Source: Clostridia bacterium | GTDB taxonomy: Bacteria > Bacillota > Clostridia > Christensenellales > CAG-917 | NCBI GenBank assembly: GCA_900754695.1 | Contig: CAAEDU010000054.1 | Span: 1-52,616 of the forward strand | DNA: 52,616 nt | Reading direction: 5' to 3' | Shown here: in pieces, positions 2,155 through 27,105 of the stretch | Layout of the letters: each line of letters starts with the position of its first letter | Numbering within the stretch: position 1 is the first letter of the stretch | Translations under genes and position numbers: made by a program | Notes under the pieces: generated by a model | Databases searched by the model: none | Told to the model about the DNA's origin: nothing | Seen by the model: the letters and a program-made list of their open reading frames with translations, nothing else

Positions 2155-3018
2155 ATGCTGAACATCCACAGACTGACCAAGACCTATCCCGGCAACCTCC
2201 GCCCCTCGGTGGAGGAGCTCTCCCTCGACATCCGCGAAGGGGAGATCTTCGGCTTCATAGGGCCCAACGGCGCGGGTAAATCCACCACGATAAAGTGCAT
2301 CACCGGCATCGTCGGCTTCGAGAGCGGTTCCGTGACCGTTTGCGGAGTCAATCTCAAAGACGATCCGCTCGCCGCCAAGCGGCTCATCGGCTACGTCTCG
2401 GACGATCACATCCTCTATGAAGGGCTGACGGGAACGGAATTCCTCGATTTCATCTGCGATGTCTTTGCAGTCCCGCCCGCAGAACGCAAGGCGAGGATGG
2501 AGAAGTATCTCGCCCTCTTTTCCCTCGAAGACGCCGTCAACAAGCAGATCAAGTCCTATTCGCACGGGATGAAGCAGAAGCTCAACATCATCGGCGCGCT
2601 CATCCACGAGCCCAGGGTGTGGATCCTGGACGAGCCCATGACGGGGCTGGACCCCAAGTCCTCCTACAACCTCAAAAAGCTGATGCGGGAACACGCGGAC
2701 AAGGGCAACTGCGTCTTTTTCAGCTCCCACGTGCTCGATGTCGTGGAGAAAGTATGCGACCGCGTGGGCATCATCGACGGAGGCAAACTGCTTGCGGACA
2801 GCACCATAAGCGACCTGCGCACCACGGGGCTCAACGAGTCCCTCGAAGAGCTCTTCCTGAAACTCACCGACGATGAGGAGCACGCGGCGGCAGAACGGGA
2901 AAATGCCGGCGACGGGGAGCACTCGGCTGCCGGCAGGGATGATACCGACGACGTGGCGCAGAGCGTCGCAAACGGCTCCGTAAACGCCGCAAAAGGGGAG
3001 GGGAAAGGCGCGGAATGA
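2155..3018 (+). CDS. ABC transporter ATP-binding protein with acidic low-complexity C-terminal tail
   Basis: Walker A GPNGAGKST, signature-like YSHGMKQK, Walker B VWILDEPMTGLD, H-loop SSHVL. The start is set at MLNIHRLTKTY, the usual N-terminus for this family. Confidence 0.9.
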   Translation: MLNIHRLTKTYPGNLRPSVEELSLDIREGEIFGFIGPNGAGKSTTIKCITGIVGFESGSVTVCGVNLKDDPLAAKRLIGYVSDDHILYEGLTGTEFLDFICDVFAVPPAERKARMEKYLALFSLEDAVNKQIKSYSHGMKQKLNIIGALIHEPRVWILDEPMTGLDPKSSYNLKKLMREHADKGNCVFFSSHVLDVVEKVCDRVGIIDGGKLLADSTISDLRTTGLNESLEELFLKLTDDEEHAAAERENAGDGEHSAAGRDDTDDVAQSVANGSVNAAKGEGKGAE

Positions 3019-4742
3019 AAGATTTCATTTTGGTGTTCCGCGTGCTTTACCGCAACCGCAGCGCGGTGGCTAAGGAGAGCAACGGCGGCAAACGCAAACT
3101 GACCTCGCAGACGGTCATGATGCTCTCGCTGCTGCCGATGGTGGCGGTCATATGCGTGATGTTGGGCTTTGTCGCGGCGGAGCTCACTACGCGCTATTCC
3201 GCGATGACTCTCCTCAACGCCATCCTTTCCGCGGTGCAGCTCTTCATCCTCTTCATGACACTTCCCACGGTGCTCGGCACTCTCTATTCCTCGGAGGACG
3301 CGGCATTCCTTGCCGCGCTGCCGCTGAGACCCGTCTCCGTGTTTTTCGCAAAACTCCTGGTGGTGTACATCACGACGCTGAAGATCGCGGCGGTGCTGCT
3401 CATCCCGTCCATGCTGACGGTGTCGGTGACTTATTCCGCATTCGGCAACCCGATGTTCTACGGGTTTTTCCCGCTCATCGCGGTGATAGTGCTCGCGGCG
3501 CCACTTCTGCCTCTCTTCATCGTGGTGTTATTCTCCATGCCCGTGGTGTGGATAGGCTCCCGTCTGAAGGGCAGAGCGGTCATAAAGACGGTGCTCTCGC
3601 TCGTCTTTTACATCTTGCTGATGGCGGCATATATGGTGCTGGTATTCTTCATCAACACGGAGGGCTTCGGACAGAACGGGACGGTGGTCTCGGACACCGC
3701 TCTCGAAGGGCTGAGACTGCTCTCCGATGTGATGTATCCCAACTCCGTGCTCATCTCGATGTGCCTCGGGATGGACGCGGCGGTGAACTTCGGCATAGGG
3801 CTCGCGATATGGTCGGGCATCACGGCTCTCACGGTGCTTTTCGCGCTGCTGTTCTACAAAAAGATCTCCTCGAGCCGCGCGGAATCCCCCGCGGAAGAGA
3901 GCTCTCCGCGCAGGCAAAGGAAGCCGCTCGGGATGACCGCAGCCCTCATAAAAAAGGATCTCCTCTCCGTCATGCGCGATCCGTCCGCGGCGATGGGGAT
4001 GTTCTCCAACGTCGTGCTGGCGCCCATAGTCATGGCGGTGATGTTCTTCTTCATGCAGGGTGACGGTGACAGGACTATGAGCGAATTCGCCGGCGATATG
4101 ATGATGCGTGGGATTGTGCTCCTTTACCCCATCGTCTTCCTCTCCGGCACGAACATGGTGGCGATGACGGCATATTCGAGGGAGGGAGAGTCCTTCTTCA
4201 TCTCCAAATTCCTGCCCATCCCGCCCAAGACCTCGGTGAGGGCGAAACTGCTTTTCTCCCTCATGGTCGCGGGAGCGGCGCTCGCGGTCATCTTCGTCCT
4301 CGCGGCGACGCTTTACGGGATAGACATCGGCTCCGCGGTCGCGATCGTGGTCGTCTCTCTGCTGTTCATAACGGGGACGAGCGCGCTGCACATCTATTTC
4401 GACATCAAAAAGGGCAACGTGCATTGGAAGGCGCAGGCGGATATGAGAGCCGGAGCGGGCGGCGGCATCGCCGCGCTCATACCCATGATGATGAGCATAG
4501 TCCCGGCGGTCGGGTTCGTCATCGCGGGAGTCTTCATGGCGGGGCTCGAGGACTCTCTCGGCCGCAGCGGCGTACTTGCCGTCTACTGGTGTCTCATCCT
4601 CGCAGTGGCGGCTGCCGTGGCGGTGAGCGGGCTGTATATCCTCCGCGAGAAGGGCATCCCGCTGTATGATAAGATAGGGGAGAACAGGGCAGTCTCCCGC
4701 CAAAGACCGCTCAATACGGACAAAAACGGATTTTTGAGATAA
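3015..4742 (+). CDS. polytopic membrane protein, putative ABC exporter permease
   Basis: 575 aa with many hydrophobic segments. Its ATG overlaps the ATPase stop codon (ATGA), consistent with translational coupling. Confidence 0.7.
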   Translation: MKDFILVFRVLYRNRSAVAKESNGGKRKLTSQTVMMLSLLPMVAVICVMLGFVAAELTTRYSAMTLLNAILSAVQLFILFMTLPTVLGTLYSSEDAAFLAALPLRPVSVFFAKLLVVYITTLKIAAVLLIPSMLTVSVTYSAFGNPMFYGFFPLIAVIVLAAPLLPLFIVVLFSMPVVWIGSRLKGRAVIKTVLSLVFYILLMAAYMVLVFFINTEGFGQNGTVVSDTALEGLRLLSDVMYPNSVLISMCLGMDAAVNFGIGLAIWSGITALTVLFALLFYKKISSSRAESPAEESSPRRQRKPLGMTAALIKKDLLSVMRDPSAAMGMFSNVVLAPIVMAVMFFFMQGDGDRTMSEFAGDMMMRGIVLLYPIVFLSGTNMVAMTAYSREGESFFISKFLPIPPKTSVRAKLLFSLMVAGAALAVIFVLAATLYGIDIGSAVAIVVVSLLFITGTSALHIYFDIKKGNVHWKAQADMRAGAGGGIAALIPMMMSIVPAVGFVIAGVFMAGLEDSLGRSGVLAVYWCLILAVAAAVAVSGLYILREKGIPLYDKIGENRAVSRQRPLNTDKNGFLR

Positions 4743-4809: not shown

Positions 4810-5241
4810 ATGCAGAAAAGAAAGATCGGGCTCGACGTCGGCGATGTGAGGATAGGCGTCGCGGTGAGCGACCTCATGGGCATCTGCGCCAATCCCCGCG
4901 AAACGTACGTCCGCAAAAAGGACGACTTCGACGCGGACATCGCTTATTTCACCGAATACGCAAAGCGGGAGGACGCGGACGCTTTCGTCGTGGGTCTCCC
5001 GATGAACATGGACGGCACGGAGGGTCACCGTGCGGAGCTCACGCGCGCTTTCGGCGAGGCGCTTCACGAGAAGAGCGGGATCGAAGTCGTCTATATGGAT
5101 GAGAGGCTGACCACAGTCTCCGCGGAACGGATGCTCATCGGCGCGGACGTCAGGCGGGAAAAGCGCAAAAAGGTCATAGACAAGGTCGCCGCGACGATAA
5201 TTTTGCAATCCTACCTTGACGGCGGCGGCAGGAGAGGTTAA
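4810..5241 (+). CDS. ruvX: Holliday junction resolvase-like protein RuvX/YqgF
   Basis: MQKRKIGLDVGDVRIGVAVSD and GLPMNMDGTEG are typical YqgF motifs. An AGGAGG lies 5 nt upstream of the ATG at 4810. Confidence 0.85.
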   Translation: MQKRKIGLDVGDVRIGVAVSDLMGICANPRETYVRKKDDFDADIAYFTEYAKREDADAFVVGLPMNMDGTEGHRAELTRAFGEALHEKSGIEVVYMDERLTTVSAERMLIGADVRREKRKKVIDKVAATIILQSYLDGGGRRG

Positions 5242-25418: not shown

Positions 25419-25682
25419 TCAAGGCTTGTCCTCGCCGTAGCGCTCCAGAGCCTGCGGCTGGACGCGCACGCGCCCGCCCGCCTCGTCCTCGATGCCGAGC
25501 AGATAGTCCGCAGAGACATCCAATGCGAGCGCGAGCCGCGCGATATAACTCGCCTTAGGTTCGTTGACATCGTTTTCCCAAAGCGAGACCGCACTCGTAT
25601 TCACGCCGATCTTTTCGGCAAGCTGCGCCTGCGACAGCGCACTGAGCGTACGTAGTTCCTTGATCCTTGCCCCTAAACTCAT
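25419..25682 (-). CDS. XRE-family helix-turn-helix transcriptional regulator (87 aa)
   Basis: LGARIKELRTLSALSQAQLAEKIGVNTSAVSLWENDVNEP is a textbook Cro/C1 HTH. The start is set at MSLG. Confidence 0.8.
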   Translation of the reverse strand: MSLGARIKELRTLSALSQAQLAEKIGVNTSAVSLWENDVNEPKASYIARLALALDVSADYLLGIEDEAGGRVRVQPQALERYGEDKP

Positions 25683-25688
25683 ATAAAG

Positions 25689-25718
25689 ATTATAACTCAA
25701 ACATGCGGGCAATGTAAA
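25689..25718 (-). promoter_or_regulatory. sigma-A-like promoter giving a leaderless XRE mRNA
   Basis: On the minus strand: TTTACA, 18 nt spacer, TATAAT, then ctttat and ATG. The A of the ATG is 7 nt past the -10, and there is no SD sequence. Confidence 0.5.
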
Positions 25719-25800
25719 GATGCAGTTGCCGACATTTCGCAAAATCGCGCTCCCGCTCATCAAGCCCCCGGGATCTTGCGTGTTTCCGCGCCCGAAATGA

Positions 25801-25824
25801 GAGAAAAGGGGAGTTTTCTCCCCC
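25801..25824 (-). terminator. intrinsic terminator (minus strand)
   Basis: GGGGAG-aaaa-CTCCCC followed by TTTTCTCTCATTT. It lies between sRNA copy 1 and the XRE promoter. Confidence 0.65.
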
Positions 25825-25897
25825 TACACGGAAAACCCGAGAAATCGAAGCTTTTCACGGCGCCATAACAAAGCAATGTGACGTCTCGGAGCAAAGG

Positions 25898-26008
25898 AAA
25901 ACCGCCCGTAGTGACGAGCGGTTTAGTGGGGGGCCTACCCTGAAAGCCTTGAGTTCCACCCCTGTCCACGCGCATCTGCCGTGGCTTCCCCTTTAGGGGG
26001 CTGATGGC
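25898..26008 (-). ncRNA. structured sRNA, paralogue 1 (family not recognised)
   Basis: Minus strand: TTGACT (26042-26037), 16 nt spacer, TATAAT (26020-26015), with G at +7. A conserved core follows. The terminator is AAACCGCUCG-ucacua-CGGGCGGUUU followed by U-rich sequence. Confidence 0.6.
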
Positions 26009-26072
26009 AAAATGATTATAGCAAAACGACGCGAAAAGTCAATAGCGATCTTGATTTTTTTAAACCGAAAAG

Positions 26073-26179
26073 AAAAACCGCCCATAAAAGGGCGGTTTGT
26101 GGGGGGCCTACACTAAAAGCCAGGTGTTCCACCCCTGTCCACGCGCATCTGCCGTGGCTTCCCGTTCCCGGGTGATGGC
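26073..26179 (-). ncRNA. structured sRNA, paralogue 2
   Basis: Minus strand: TTGACA (26214-26209), 17 nt spacer, TATATT (26191-26186), with G at +7. The core is nearly identical to copy 1. The terminator is AAACCGCCC-uuuuau-GGGCGGUUU followed by UU. Confidence 0.65.
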
Positions 26180-26340
26180 TTAATAAATATAGCAGAGCGG
26201 CGGCGTGATGTCAAGCCCGGATCTTCCGCAAAATCAGACCGTCTATGACCGAGAAACGCAGACTTCCGGCTTTTTTTCGGCAAAAGGGGAGCATCCGCTC
26301 AAAAATGATAGCGCGCCCCCGCAAAAAACCCGCTCATAAG

Positions 26341-26450
26341 AAAACCGCCCGTAAAAGGGCGGTTTGCGGGAAGTCTACGCACGAAGACCAAACGTTCTTC
26401 CCTGTCCACGCGAGATTCCCTCCGTGGCTACCCCCTACGGGGCGGTGGTC
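26341..26450 (-). ncRNA. structured sRNA, paralogue 3 (diverged)
   Basis: Minus strand: TTGACA (26485-26480), 17 nt spacer, TACCAT (26462-26457), with G at +7. The architecture is the same, with compensatory changes. The terminator is AAACCGCCC-uuuuac-GGGCGGUUU followed by UCUU. Confidence 0.55.
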
Positions 26451-26728
26451 AAATTTATGGTAACAATCTATCGCATTTGTGTCAAGTATAAATTTACGTA
26501 TCATATAAAACGACAAACGGAAGTGCAGAGCGCATACGAACGGCTTTTGAAAATATACAACTTCAAAAAGATGGTGTATAAAAAACGCAGGATCCCATAA
26601 TACTCCGCTGAAACATTGAGGATCCGCAAGACACTCTACGAAGATGATCCGAGCGCTCCAAAGACGATCACTACGCTTCCCGAGGCGATCGAGACATTCT
26701 GCGAGGACAAATCGGACATTCCATCCCG

Positions 26729-26759
26729 AAAAATTTTTGAAAATTTTTCAAAAAATTTG
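26729..26759. other. phased A/T tract GAAAAATTTTTGAAAATTTTTCAAAAAATTTGA
   Basis: Read directly from the sequence. A-runs and T-runs alternate with a period of about 10 nt, and the near-palindrome TTGAAAATTTTTCAA is embedded. Confidence 0.6.
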
Positions 26760-26780
26760 AGGGCAGAGAGCCTGCTAATC

Positions 26781-26808
26781 TATTCGCAAAACACAGCTTT
26801 TGCGAATA
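26781..26808. repeat. perfect 11-bp-arm inverted repeat TATTCGCAAAA-cacagc-TTTTGCGAATA
   Basis: Read directly from the sequence. There is no U-tract on either strand, so it looks like an operator rather than a terminator. Confidence 0.75.
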
Positions 26809-26898
26809 GAAAGTGCAAAAAAGCCGCTTTTCCGGTAGGATGAGAAGTTTTTAGGAAAATCTGCGGCCATTCGCAATTATTTGCGTTTTACGGAGACT

Positions 26899-27105
26899 TG
26901 TGTTGTTTTGCGTAGTTTTTCGTTCGGCTTATTAGCACCGACCGATCCGTGATGCCAGCGATCTTATTGTATTGCTTTGCGTTGTTTTTCGACCGGCTCT
27001 TTCTTCCTCTTGTTCTCAGGTGTAAGCGGTTCCGCGTGTATTGCTTAGCATTGGTTCGCGGTCGGTTTATTCATTCGGTCCGAGTTTCCGTGTAAAGCCC
27101 GTTGT
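26899..27105 (+). repeat. three degenerate tandem direct repeats with an exact 69-bp period
   Basis: TGTGTTG, TGTATTG and TGTATTG start at 26899, 26968 and 27037. Over the first 35 nt, unit 1 vs unit 2 is 28/35 identical and unit 2 vs unit 3 is 24/35, ungapped. The unit tails also resemble each other (CCGTG..GCC.GCG). Confidence 0.7.

Follow-up and report, generated by a model that had tools for sequence, protein, structure and literature searches.

A pseudoknotted RNA gene array in a Clostridia bacterium belongs to a family carried by small integrative elements

What are the short units that recur three times on the minus strand of a Clostridia contig, and what might they do for the host or for the DNA that carries them? 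The locus lies in a stretch of 52,616 nt (GenBank assembly GCA_900754695.1, contig CAAEDU010000054.1, positions 1 to 52,616), the whole of which is called the window here. A first-pass annotation of the window had described three units of one plan, every one of them running from a promoter through a core of ~85 nt to an intrinsic terminator. A promoter and terminator scan, together with direct reading, bore this plan out, and the three units are confirmed as separately promoted and terminated paralogous structured RNA genes (Table 1). The evidence supports well their membership of an undescribed pseudoknotted RNA family, uncatalogued in Rfam, which in integrative elements lies beside the gene of a conserved basic protein, p105.

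Three RNA genes with their own promoters and terminators

The promoter hexamers and spacers proposed at first pass were all recovered, with 16 nt between the -35 and -10 boxes in unit 1 and 17 nt in both unit 2 and unit 3, an extended -10 TG in 3/3 units, and a G, the candidate transcription start site (TSS), 7 nt past each -10 box. The consensus scan finds 5 promoter-like sites per 2.5 kb against 1.7 expected; three of the sites are the unit promoters, which score 10-11 of 12. The terminators are intact in all three units and consist of a AAACCGCCC/GGGCGGUUU hairpin followed by a U-run, the hairpins reading AAACCGC.../...GCGGUUU throughout. That of unit 2 is called fully by the scan and that of unit 1 in part, and the same hairpin is found in unit 3 by direct sequence reading. 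Searching for the core pattern AGCCACGG-N(5-15)-CGCGTGGACAGGG yields three matches in the window and none in 100 shuffles, and the covariance model described below counts exactly three copies in the window, scoring unit 1 at 126 bits.

Units 1 and 2 share 90% identity over 71 nt and unit 3 has diverged further, as had been noticed; we call the two kinds A-type and B-type. Every helix is intact in the window units, with compensatory differences between copies: in unit 2 the inner pair of helix P1 is flipped and the loop is GGAA. The minimum free energy fold of unit 3 is the proposed fold (z = -2.66). An AUG is present in the cores of the A-type units only, and therefore the RNA holds no conserved open reading frame (ORF). 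It had also been stated that no ORF follows any unit, and none is found within the same transcription unit: the next gene encodes an XRE-family helix-turn-helix (HTH) protein and has its own promoter (Table 1). The units are not arranged as a riboswitch or cis-acting leader, since each terminates and another promoter follows, while in the elements described below the 3' end of a convergent gene follows.

Table 1. Coordinates of the RNA units and of other features discussed in the text (window positions unless a locus is named)
Feature	Position	Strand	Details
Unit 1 (A-type)	25898..26042	(-)	-35 TTGACT 26042-26037, -10 TATAAT 26020-26015, TSS G 26008
Unit 1 body	core 26008-25925, terminator hairpin 25924-25899	(-)	then U-run
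Unit 2 (A-type)	26070..26214	(-)	-35 TTGACA 26214-26209, -10 TATATT 26191-26186, TSS G 26179
Unit 2 body	core 26179-26099, terminator 26098-26075	(-)	then U-run
Unit 3 (B-type)	26339..26485	(-)	-35 TTGACA 26485-26480, -10 TACCAT 26462-26457, TSS G 26450
Unit 3 body	core 26450-26366, terminator 26365-26342	(-)	then U-run
XRE/cI-type HTH gene	25419..25718	(-)	87 aa, coding region 25419-25682, ATG 25682, promoter TTTACA-18-TATAAT 25718-25689
95-nt conserved element, two palindromes	26729..26823		homology to L024/L020 breaks inside at ~26803
Second candidate small RNA, ~85 nt	L009:3705-3795	(+)	inverted copy at L009:2492-2575

Homologues and a covarying fold

The family was reported as unrecognised, and this stands after scanning with covariance models. 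Rfam 15 at gathering scores returned two tRNAs only for the whole window; positions 25700-26700 searched at E up to 10 gave terminator-driven noise, with no RsaE, RoxS or 6C; 14 related loci gave only tRNAs and chance matches; and the five loci with the most divergent copies gave no family match at E up to 0.01. No match was returned by blastn of two units against phage and plasmid records, the core-pattern scan of IMG/VR gave 0 matches, and the RNA family was not found described in a literature search. Helix order and the absence of an Rfam match led to the rejection of twister and HDV-like ribozyme topologies. A likeness to E. coli 4.5S RNA in the P2 loop of A-type copies was dropped, the loop being variable and the signal recognition particle models giving no match.

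Homologues are nonetheless numerous. A scan for the exact core pattern in reference genomes, one genome per species, gave two true loci, in an uncultured Clostridia metagenome-assembled genome (MAG) with two copies and in Candidatus Limadaptatus stercoravium, and four chance matches. The same approach in metagenomes added 14 true loci, with the matches in L021 and L026 rejected as chance. Two covariance models (R1 and R2) were then built, and they recover ~50 copies, representing 28 distinct sequences, on >40 contigs from gut metagenomes and MAGs, so that the fear that the unit might be confined to one assembly was not realised. The RNA is ~113 nt long in the family. Where upstream DNA is available, a sigma-70-like promoter scoring at least 9/12 stands at a fixed distance in 48 of 50 genuine copies and an extended -10 in 42 of 50; the hairpin and U-run are present in all genuine copies.

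The fold comprises helices P1, P2, P3 and P3b, a pseudoknot between the 5' end and the P3b loop, and the intrinsic terminator. Because MAFFT and the covariance model set the B-type copies one column off in P3b, 27 distinct sequences were placed by hand and passed through the aligner with N padding to hold the register. In this alignment, which was fitted by its author to this structure and in which many sequences are closely related, standard pairs occupy 98.5% of 965 cells, against 31-49% when the 3' partners are slid by 1-3 columns. Both sides change in 15/38 pairs (80 cells), and the observed pairing score was reached by 0/500 shuffles; an earlier set of 20 sequences gave the same picture. 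The terminator helix is paired in 98.7% of cells. P3 appears as GGGG(U)GG/CCCCCC, GGGAAG/CUUCCC, GAGAAG/CUUCUC, GAAAAG/CUUUUC, GUGAAG/CUUCAC and GGAAAG/CUUUCC, and the lower stem of P2 as CCACG/CGUGG, CAACG/CGUUG, CGUCG/CGACG and CUGCG/CGCAG. The pseudoknot is formed by G-CCA/UGG-C, by GACCA/UGGUC, which is a compensatory insertion on both sides, by GGUCA/UGACC, and, in a contig from IMG/VR, by GUAAC/GUUAC.

Much of the structure drawn by eye at first pass is thus upheld by homologues. The P1 helix (CCCC/GGGG or CCCG/CGGG), P3 and the inner hairpin are present and covary, and the proposed pairing of the 5' end with a loop is kept through compensatory change. The GCCACGG/CGUGGAC stem, described as invariant, is so in the window and its close relatives; in the wider family it covaries. 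Among unpaired positions, a small set varies little or not at all. In and around P2 these are the bulged G and A and the A that precedes the helix; P3 is followed by an A of this kind (within GAAC), and P3b by AG(R), which in GUAG(R) comes after the paired GU; the last is CUU in the P3b loop. Single-sequence folding does not tell the strands apart, sense and antisense folding equally well; however, the alignment holds 43 G·U cells and 4 A·C cells, and therefore selection is placed on the strand that bears the promoter and terminator.

Integrative elements, p105 and the orphan copies

The RNA is a fixed component of a family of integrative elements of ~10-13 kb in gut Clostridia. The element loci are L022, L028 and L036-L059, with a single IMG/VR relative, L060, which is the one contig found when IMG/VR was scanned with p105. 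This conserved basic protein has 105 aa, and the RNA lies head-to-head with its gene, directly upstream, in 33/33 loci with enough upstream DNA, 3 of the 33 copies being cut by a contig end. The 539 homologue clusters of p105 at 90% identity are all unnamed or called 'hypothetical protein', and element contigs were fetched for six of them. No match to p105 was found in Pfam or among PDB sequences, and its AlphaFold model (pLDDT 72) has no significant Foldseek match in the PDB. Genes in the element loci were called by codon-position GC, which corrected long ORFs adjoining the RNA as spurious antisense ORFs of high-GC DNA (no Pfam match); the genes adjoining many copies are of lower GC.

An element begins with an integrase and/or a cI-like HTH gene, divergent from an early operon that encodes a Rep with Rep_OBD and SF3-helicase domains, or a single-strand DNA-binding protein (SSB), or unannotated genes; Rep is absent from the Pfam matches in several variants. 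After the early operon come the gene of a small basic protein (p87, p100 or p108), the RNA on the opposite strand, and p105, downstream of which lie six to eight unannotated genes, including those of predicted membrane proteins, lipoproteins and proteins of 480-750 aa; p105 is the first gene of this downstream, putatively late, operon. The gene of the small basic protein (87-108 aa) always ends at the RNA terminator. Searches of Pfam, PHROGs and PADLOC with ~35 element proteins left nearly all without a match, the exceptions being a tyrosine integrase beside a tRNA (L028, L031, L049) and the XRE HTH. The HTH is accompanied in L046, L047 and L052 by a 243-aa protein; that of L046 (L046:2325-3056, minus strand) matches PADLOC families with PD-(D/E)xK nucleases among their members (PDC-S69, E = 6e-19, and HEAT_CxxC_PD-DEXK) and may be a defence cargo gene. 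One element variant contains a sub-threshold match to the c-di-GMP-I-GGC riboswitch (L057:2090-2224, minus strand; 33.5 bits against a gathering score of 59, E = 3e-4).

The promoter of the RNA is embedded in the start of p105. In L037 its -35 box TTGACA (5007-5002) overlaps the p105 ATG (5001-5003), so that the hexamer reads as ATGTCA(A) in reverse complement; the -10 box is TACAAT (4984-4979), and the TSS, at 4972, precedes the ATG by 29 nt. The overlap was read directly in L037 and is seen in the other elements whose upstream sequence was inspected. The p105 Shine-Dalgarno sequence sits in the spacer of the RNA promoter, and the palindrome-like CTGTAATTTACAG found upstream of many -35 boxes corresponds to p105 codons 2-6. 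At the other end, the preceding gene's stop codon is adjacent to the RNA terminator or overlapped by it, and the RNA overlaps the 3' end of this convergent gene by ~18 nt. No plus-strand promoter was found by the consensus scan between the preceding gene and p105; in L046, an early promoter matching the consensus is found 1.6 kb upstream. If the early operon is read through into p105, the mRNA leader would therefore carry the exact complement of the RNA, and this complement would stop ~13 nt before the p105 Shine-Dalgarno sequence. The geometry is that of a cis-antisense RNA, set between co-oriented genes of the other strand with no promoter detected between them, and the RNA has the promoter (48/50) and paired terminator (98.7%) of a short discrete transcript; the window copies are without a cis target.

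The window copies are, by comparison with related loci, orphans of a degraded element that has retained the RNA promoters; of its protein genes, the repressor-like HTH gene alone survives. A tblastn search of the window finds none of p105, p87 and p108. Homologues of the window HTH are the terminal, divergently oriented, repressor-like genes of the intact elements L046, L047 and L052, and the contigs reached through HTH homologues are syntenic, their genes running mutL-miaA-mgl-[variable region]-HTH-AP endonuclease-ribF-truB-nrnA. The RNA is present in some of these and absent in others, L008 and L014-L019 being without it at the equivalent of the window locus. In L046 the window's own locus, immediately next to the HTH and AP-endonuclease genes, is occupied by an intact element. 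L024, 97.6% identical to the window over 2.6 kb, has an intact element that starts at about window position 26803 and adjoins near-identical orphan copies. Fragments of element genes flank the chromosomal RNA copies of L006, L009-L011, L020 and L034: the last 42-43 codons of p108 and, at several of these loci, the first 26 codons of p105 as well. Unit 1 and unit 3 are each 96.5% identical to an element-borne copy (L049:3860-3972 and L046:4860-4972, respectively), and unit 2 is 93.7% identical to a syntenic copy (L001:3406-3516). L001 has a B-then-A tandem syntenic with that of the window, and in this comparison the flanking housekeeping genes are 78-83% identical, the RNA bodies 94-96% and the spacer 53%. 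These figures speak against neutral decay and favour either purifying selection or repeated conversion by RNAs of circulating elements; the RNA bodies being conserved far above the spacers, the copies are probably retained immunity remnants.

Several further features of this locus and its relatives may be recorded. The window HTH gene is leaderless, its ATG lying 7 nt after the TATAAT box, as also in L006 and L046; in this it resembles lambda cI transcribed from PRM. The 95-nt conserved element (Table 1), with the palindromes CTATTCGCAAAA...TTTTGCGAATAG and TTTTGAAAAATTTTCAAAA and a fold of z = -4.06, is found in every related genome and may be where the element attaches or ends. The gene-poor stretch upstream of the RNAs contains three imperfect 36-nt matches at a spacing of 69 nt (26899-27072; 61-100% identity to the reference copy), which Tandem Repeats Finder does not call. 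L007:3236-3457 is an insertion of ~220 bp resembling a miniature inverted-repeat transposable element, with 19-bp terminal inverted repeats (GCCAGACAGGAATAATACG); it splits the promoter of one RNA copy between the -35 and -10 boxes, and this copy also has mismatches in P3. A copy at L027:9995-10109 (minus strand) lies between spo0A, to which it is convergent, and spoIVB, a site other than the mgl-HTH hotspot.

A second candidate small RNA adjoins chromosomal copies of the main RNA and was not seen within intact elements (Table 1). It has the promoter TTGACT-17-TATAAT, a long closing stem AAAUAGACGGG/CCCGUCUAUUU, a U-run and a fold of z = -3.15, and gives no Rfam match. Further copies are found in L001 (~3016-3100), L006 (~5005-4925, minus strand), L008 (~3253), L010-L012, L020 (9358-9433) and L034/L035; the window is without one.

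Possible function and comparison with known systems

We tentatively propose, with a confidence that falls a little short of an even balance, that the RNA may serve as a countertranscript gate on read-through from the early to the putative late genes. Early transcripts that reach p105 and the late genes would carry the full complement of the RNA in their leader and would have to cross a strong convergent promoter. Expression of p105 and the late operon would be shut off by transcriptional interference combined with antisense pairing a short way ahead of the ribosome-binding site. The window RNAs, together with the repressor, would provide immunity in trans against related elements, whether incoming or already resident. 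Several observations weigh against this proposal. The RNA leaves the p105 Shine-Dalgarno sequence and AUG uncovered, and therefore a translational block by pairing is not obvious. Junction and bulge nucleotides of the RNA are invariant and its 5' end is tied up in the pseudoknot, features that exceed the needs of a simple antisense RNA and hint at a protein-related or tertiary function. The window copies have no cis target, and since the intact element of L024 stands beside near-identical orphans, any immunity is not exclusion of integration. Moreover, the promoter scan is a crude consensus search that may miss a p105 promoter, and the conservation of the -35 box in element copies is partly forced by the p105 codons Met-Ser-Thr.

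The same invariant nucleotides are one reason to consider that the RNA acts mainly by its three-dimensional fold, as a partner, scaffold or decoy for a protein of the element or of the host (e.g. the small basic protein or p105) or as a ligand-binding or catalytic RNA, its antisense position reflecting linkage. The helices covary around unpaired positions that stay invariant or nearly so, the pseudoknot persists although its sequence has turned over completely, the fold is strand-specific, orphans are kept where no cis target exists, and the gene of a very basic protein always ends at the terminator. On the other side, the analysis turned up no partner protein, and p105 matches nothing in Pfam or the PDB, by sequence or structure; no gene except the HTH is co-retained with the orphans, and Rfam gives no riboswitch or ribozyme match. 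We regard this explanation as unlikely, though as deserving attention. Scarcely different in standing, and doubtful, is the bolder idea that the fold itself could be what acts in a novel ribonucleoprotein or an RNA-based immunity system, in which the pseudoknotted RNA would be the specificity determinant that silences late genes. If true, orphan arrays of A-type, B-type and hybrid copies would, with the repressor, constitute a heritable RNA-based defence against superinfection, and immunity groups would be set apart by compensatory change in P2, P3 and the pseudoknot. It is less probable still that the window copies are neutral relics of decayed elements, with no present function here. A low-GC, gene-poor stretch at an element insertion hotspot, the fragmentary element genes around such copies in relatives, the disrupted copy of L007 and the absence of the RNA from L008 and L014-L019 would all fit such decay; but the three window units keep near-consensus promoters (10-11 of 12), intact terminators and all helices with compensatory differences between copies, and the syntenic tandem of L001 has preserved its RNA bodies (94-96%) and not its spacer (53%).

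The remaining explanations seem to us improbable to a greater degree. An arrangement like that of a type I toxin-antitoxin system, with the RNA as antitoxin repressing p105 or the convergent basic protein and the chromosomal orphans as anti-addiction copies, would suit an RNA that is antisense to the p105 leader and overlaps the end of the convergent gene by ~18 nt, a geometry resembling hok/Sok, tisB/IstR-1 and bsrG/SR4. Yet p105, p87 and p108 are predicted to be soluble and highly basic and not short hydrophobic peptides, p105 is the first gene of a long co-oriented operon, and PADLOC and Pfam give no toxin match; we consider the case very improbable. Somewhat harder again to credit is that the conserved fold acts as DNA, as a single-strand origin or packaging signal of a rolling-circle element. 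Some elements do encode an HUH (Rep_OBD) and SF3-helicase Rep, or an SSB, and G·T pairs are tolerated in folded single-stranded DNA too; but a double-strand-type promoter and an intrinsic terminator keep their register in 48/50 copies, including orphans whose -35 box is freed from p105 codons, and several variants have no Rep match. The first-pass annotation had itself suggested exposed C-rich tracts resembling the anti-Shine-Dalgarno seeds of RoxS/RsaE-type and 6C-type RNAs; on such a reading the units would be trans-acting RNAs of this type, or of the LhrC type, that block the Shine-Dalgarno sequences of host mRNAs. The multiple sibling copies, each with promoter and terminator, and the C-rich stretches of the window copies are what such a role would lead one to expect. 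The C-rich tract, however, forms the 3' side of P3 and is 98.8% paired, by cells, and variable in sequence (CCCCCC, CUUCCC, CUUCUC, CUUUUC, CUUCAC, CUUUCC), with 4/6 pairs changing on both sides, which is the opposite of what a conserved single-stranded seed would show. No invariant unpaired segment of seed length is found, only junction bases of 1-3 nt and the CUU of the P3b loop; the RoxS/RsaE model, like that of 6C, gave no match in 25700-26700 even at E = 10; and the family travels with a mobile element, not a host regulon. This suggestion fails on the accessibility of its seeds, and of all the explanations it is the one to which we give the least credence.

Whatever its mode of action, the RNA adds a structured, pseudoknotted family that is tied to widespread and almost wholly unannotated small integrative elements, and it provides a handy marker for finding these elements and their remnants. 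The fixed overlap of promoter and start codon offers a concrete, testable switch for the element family, and the orphan copies raise the possibility that hosts may keep regulatory RNAs of elements as immunity.

The proposed countertranscript gate has its closest parallels in phages. The P22 sar RNA and lambda OOP are phage countertranscripts, and sar covers the ribosome-binding site of ant. Like them, the RNA is short and terminator-ended, with a putatively constitutive promoter, lies in a temperate element opposite an operon, has its promoter embedded in the start of the facing gene and would be expected to limit that gene's expression. It differs in stopping ~13 nt before the Shine-Dalgarno sequence, in bearing no sequence or Rfam relation to them, in having its own covarying, multi-helix pseudoknotted fold with invariant junction bases, and in occurring as chromosomal orphan arrays. 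Convergent promoters and a small antisense RNA used as a gate are also known from prgQ/prgX-Anti-Q of pCF10 and from pR/pL of phage 186. There, two regulated promoters give overlapping transcripts and the RNA arises by processing of a longer one, whereas here the RNA is a discrete terminated gene and no peptide or repressor input is known. As arrays, the window units resemble the LhrC1-5, Qrr and PrrF siblings, which are several tandem paralogues of ~110 nt, each with promoter and terminator. The likeness is one of workings and not of homology: those RNAs belong to host regulons and act on host mRNAs via conserved single-stranded seeds (UCCC in LhrC), whereas in the present family, which is element-borne, the C-rich tract is paired and covaries, and the unpaired C-rich motif of RoxS/RsaE and 6C is likewise missing.

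The arrays associated with UG27 reverse transcriptases (RT) offer another comparison. They are variable arrays of a structure-conserved, sequence-diverse non-coding RNA (ncRNA) with a pseudoknot, in prophage regions of gut bacteria; their units measure ~135-167 nt, form one long hairpin with an asymmetric internal loop and lie beside genes for an RT, an sORF and a bORF (bioRxiv 10.64898/2026.09.22.753630). The present units have ~113 nt and three hairpins, each unit with its own promoter and terminator, and no RT domain was found among the window neighbours or the called genes of 30 element loci. The RNA is not a UG27-type ncRNA array, given the absence of an RT and the differing unit architecture. 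Type I toxin-antitoxin modules have a small hydrophobic or SymE-like toxin, whereas the neighbours here are predicted soluble basic proteins of 87-108 aa without a toxin match. There is no Rfam match to the phi29 pRNA, and no DNA polymerase B turned up among the element proteins, nearly all of which are without a Pfam match, likeness to phi29 not having been looked at specifically. The RNA is thus not a member, by sequence or by Rfam, of any family compared. Its kind, if it is an element-encoded antisense or immunity RNA, is already known; the new variations on it are the fold, the overlap of the RNA promoter with a start codon, and the chromosomal arrays of orphan copies.

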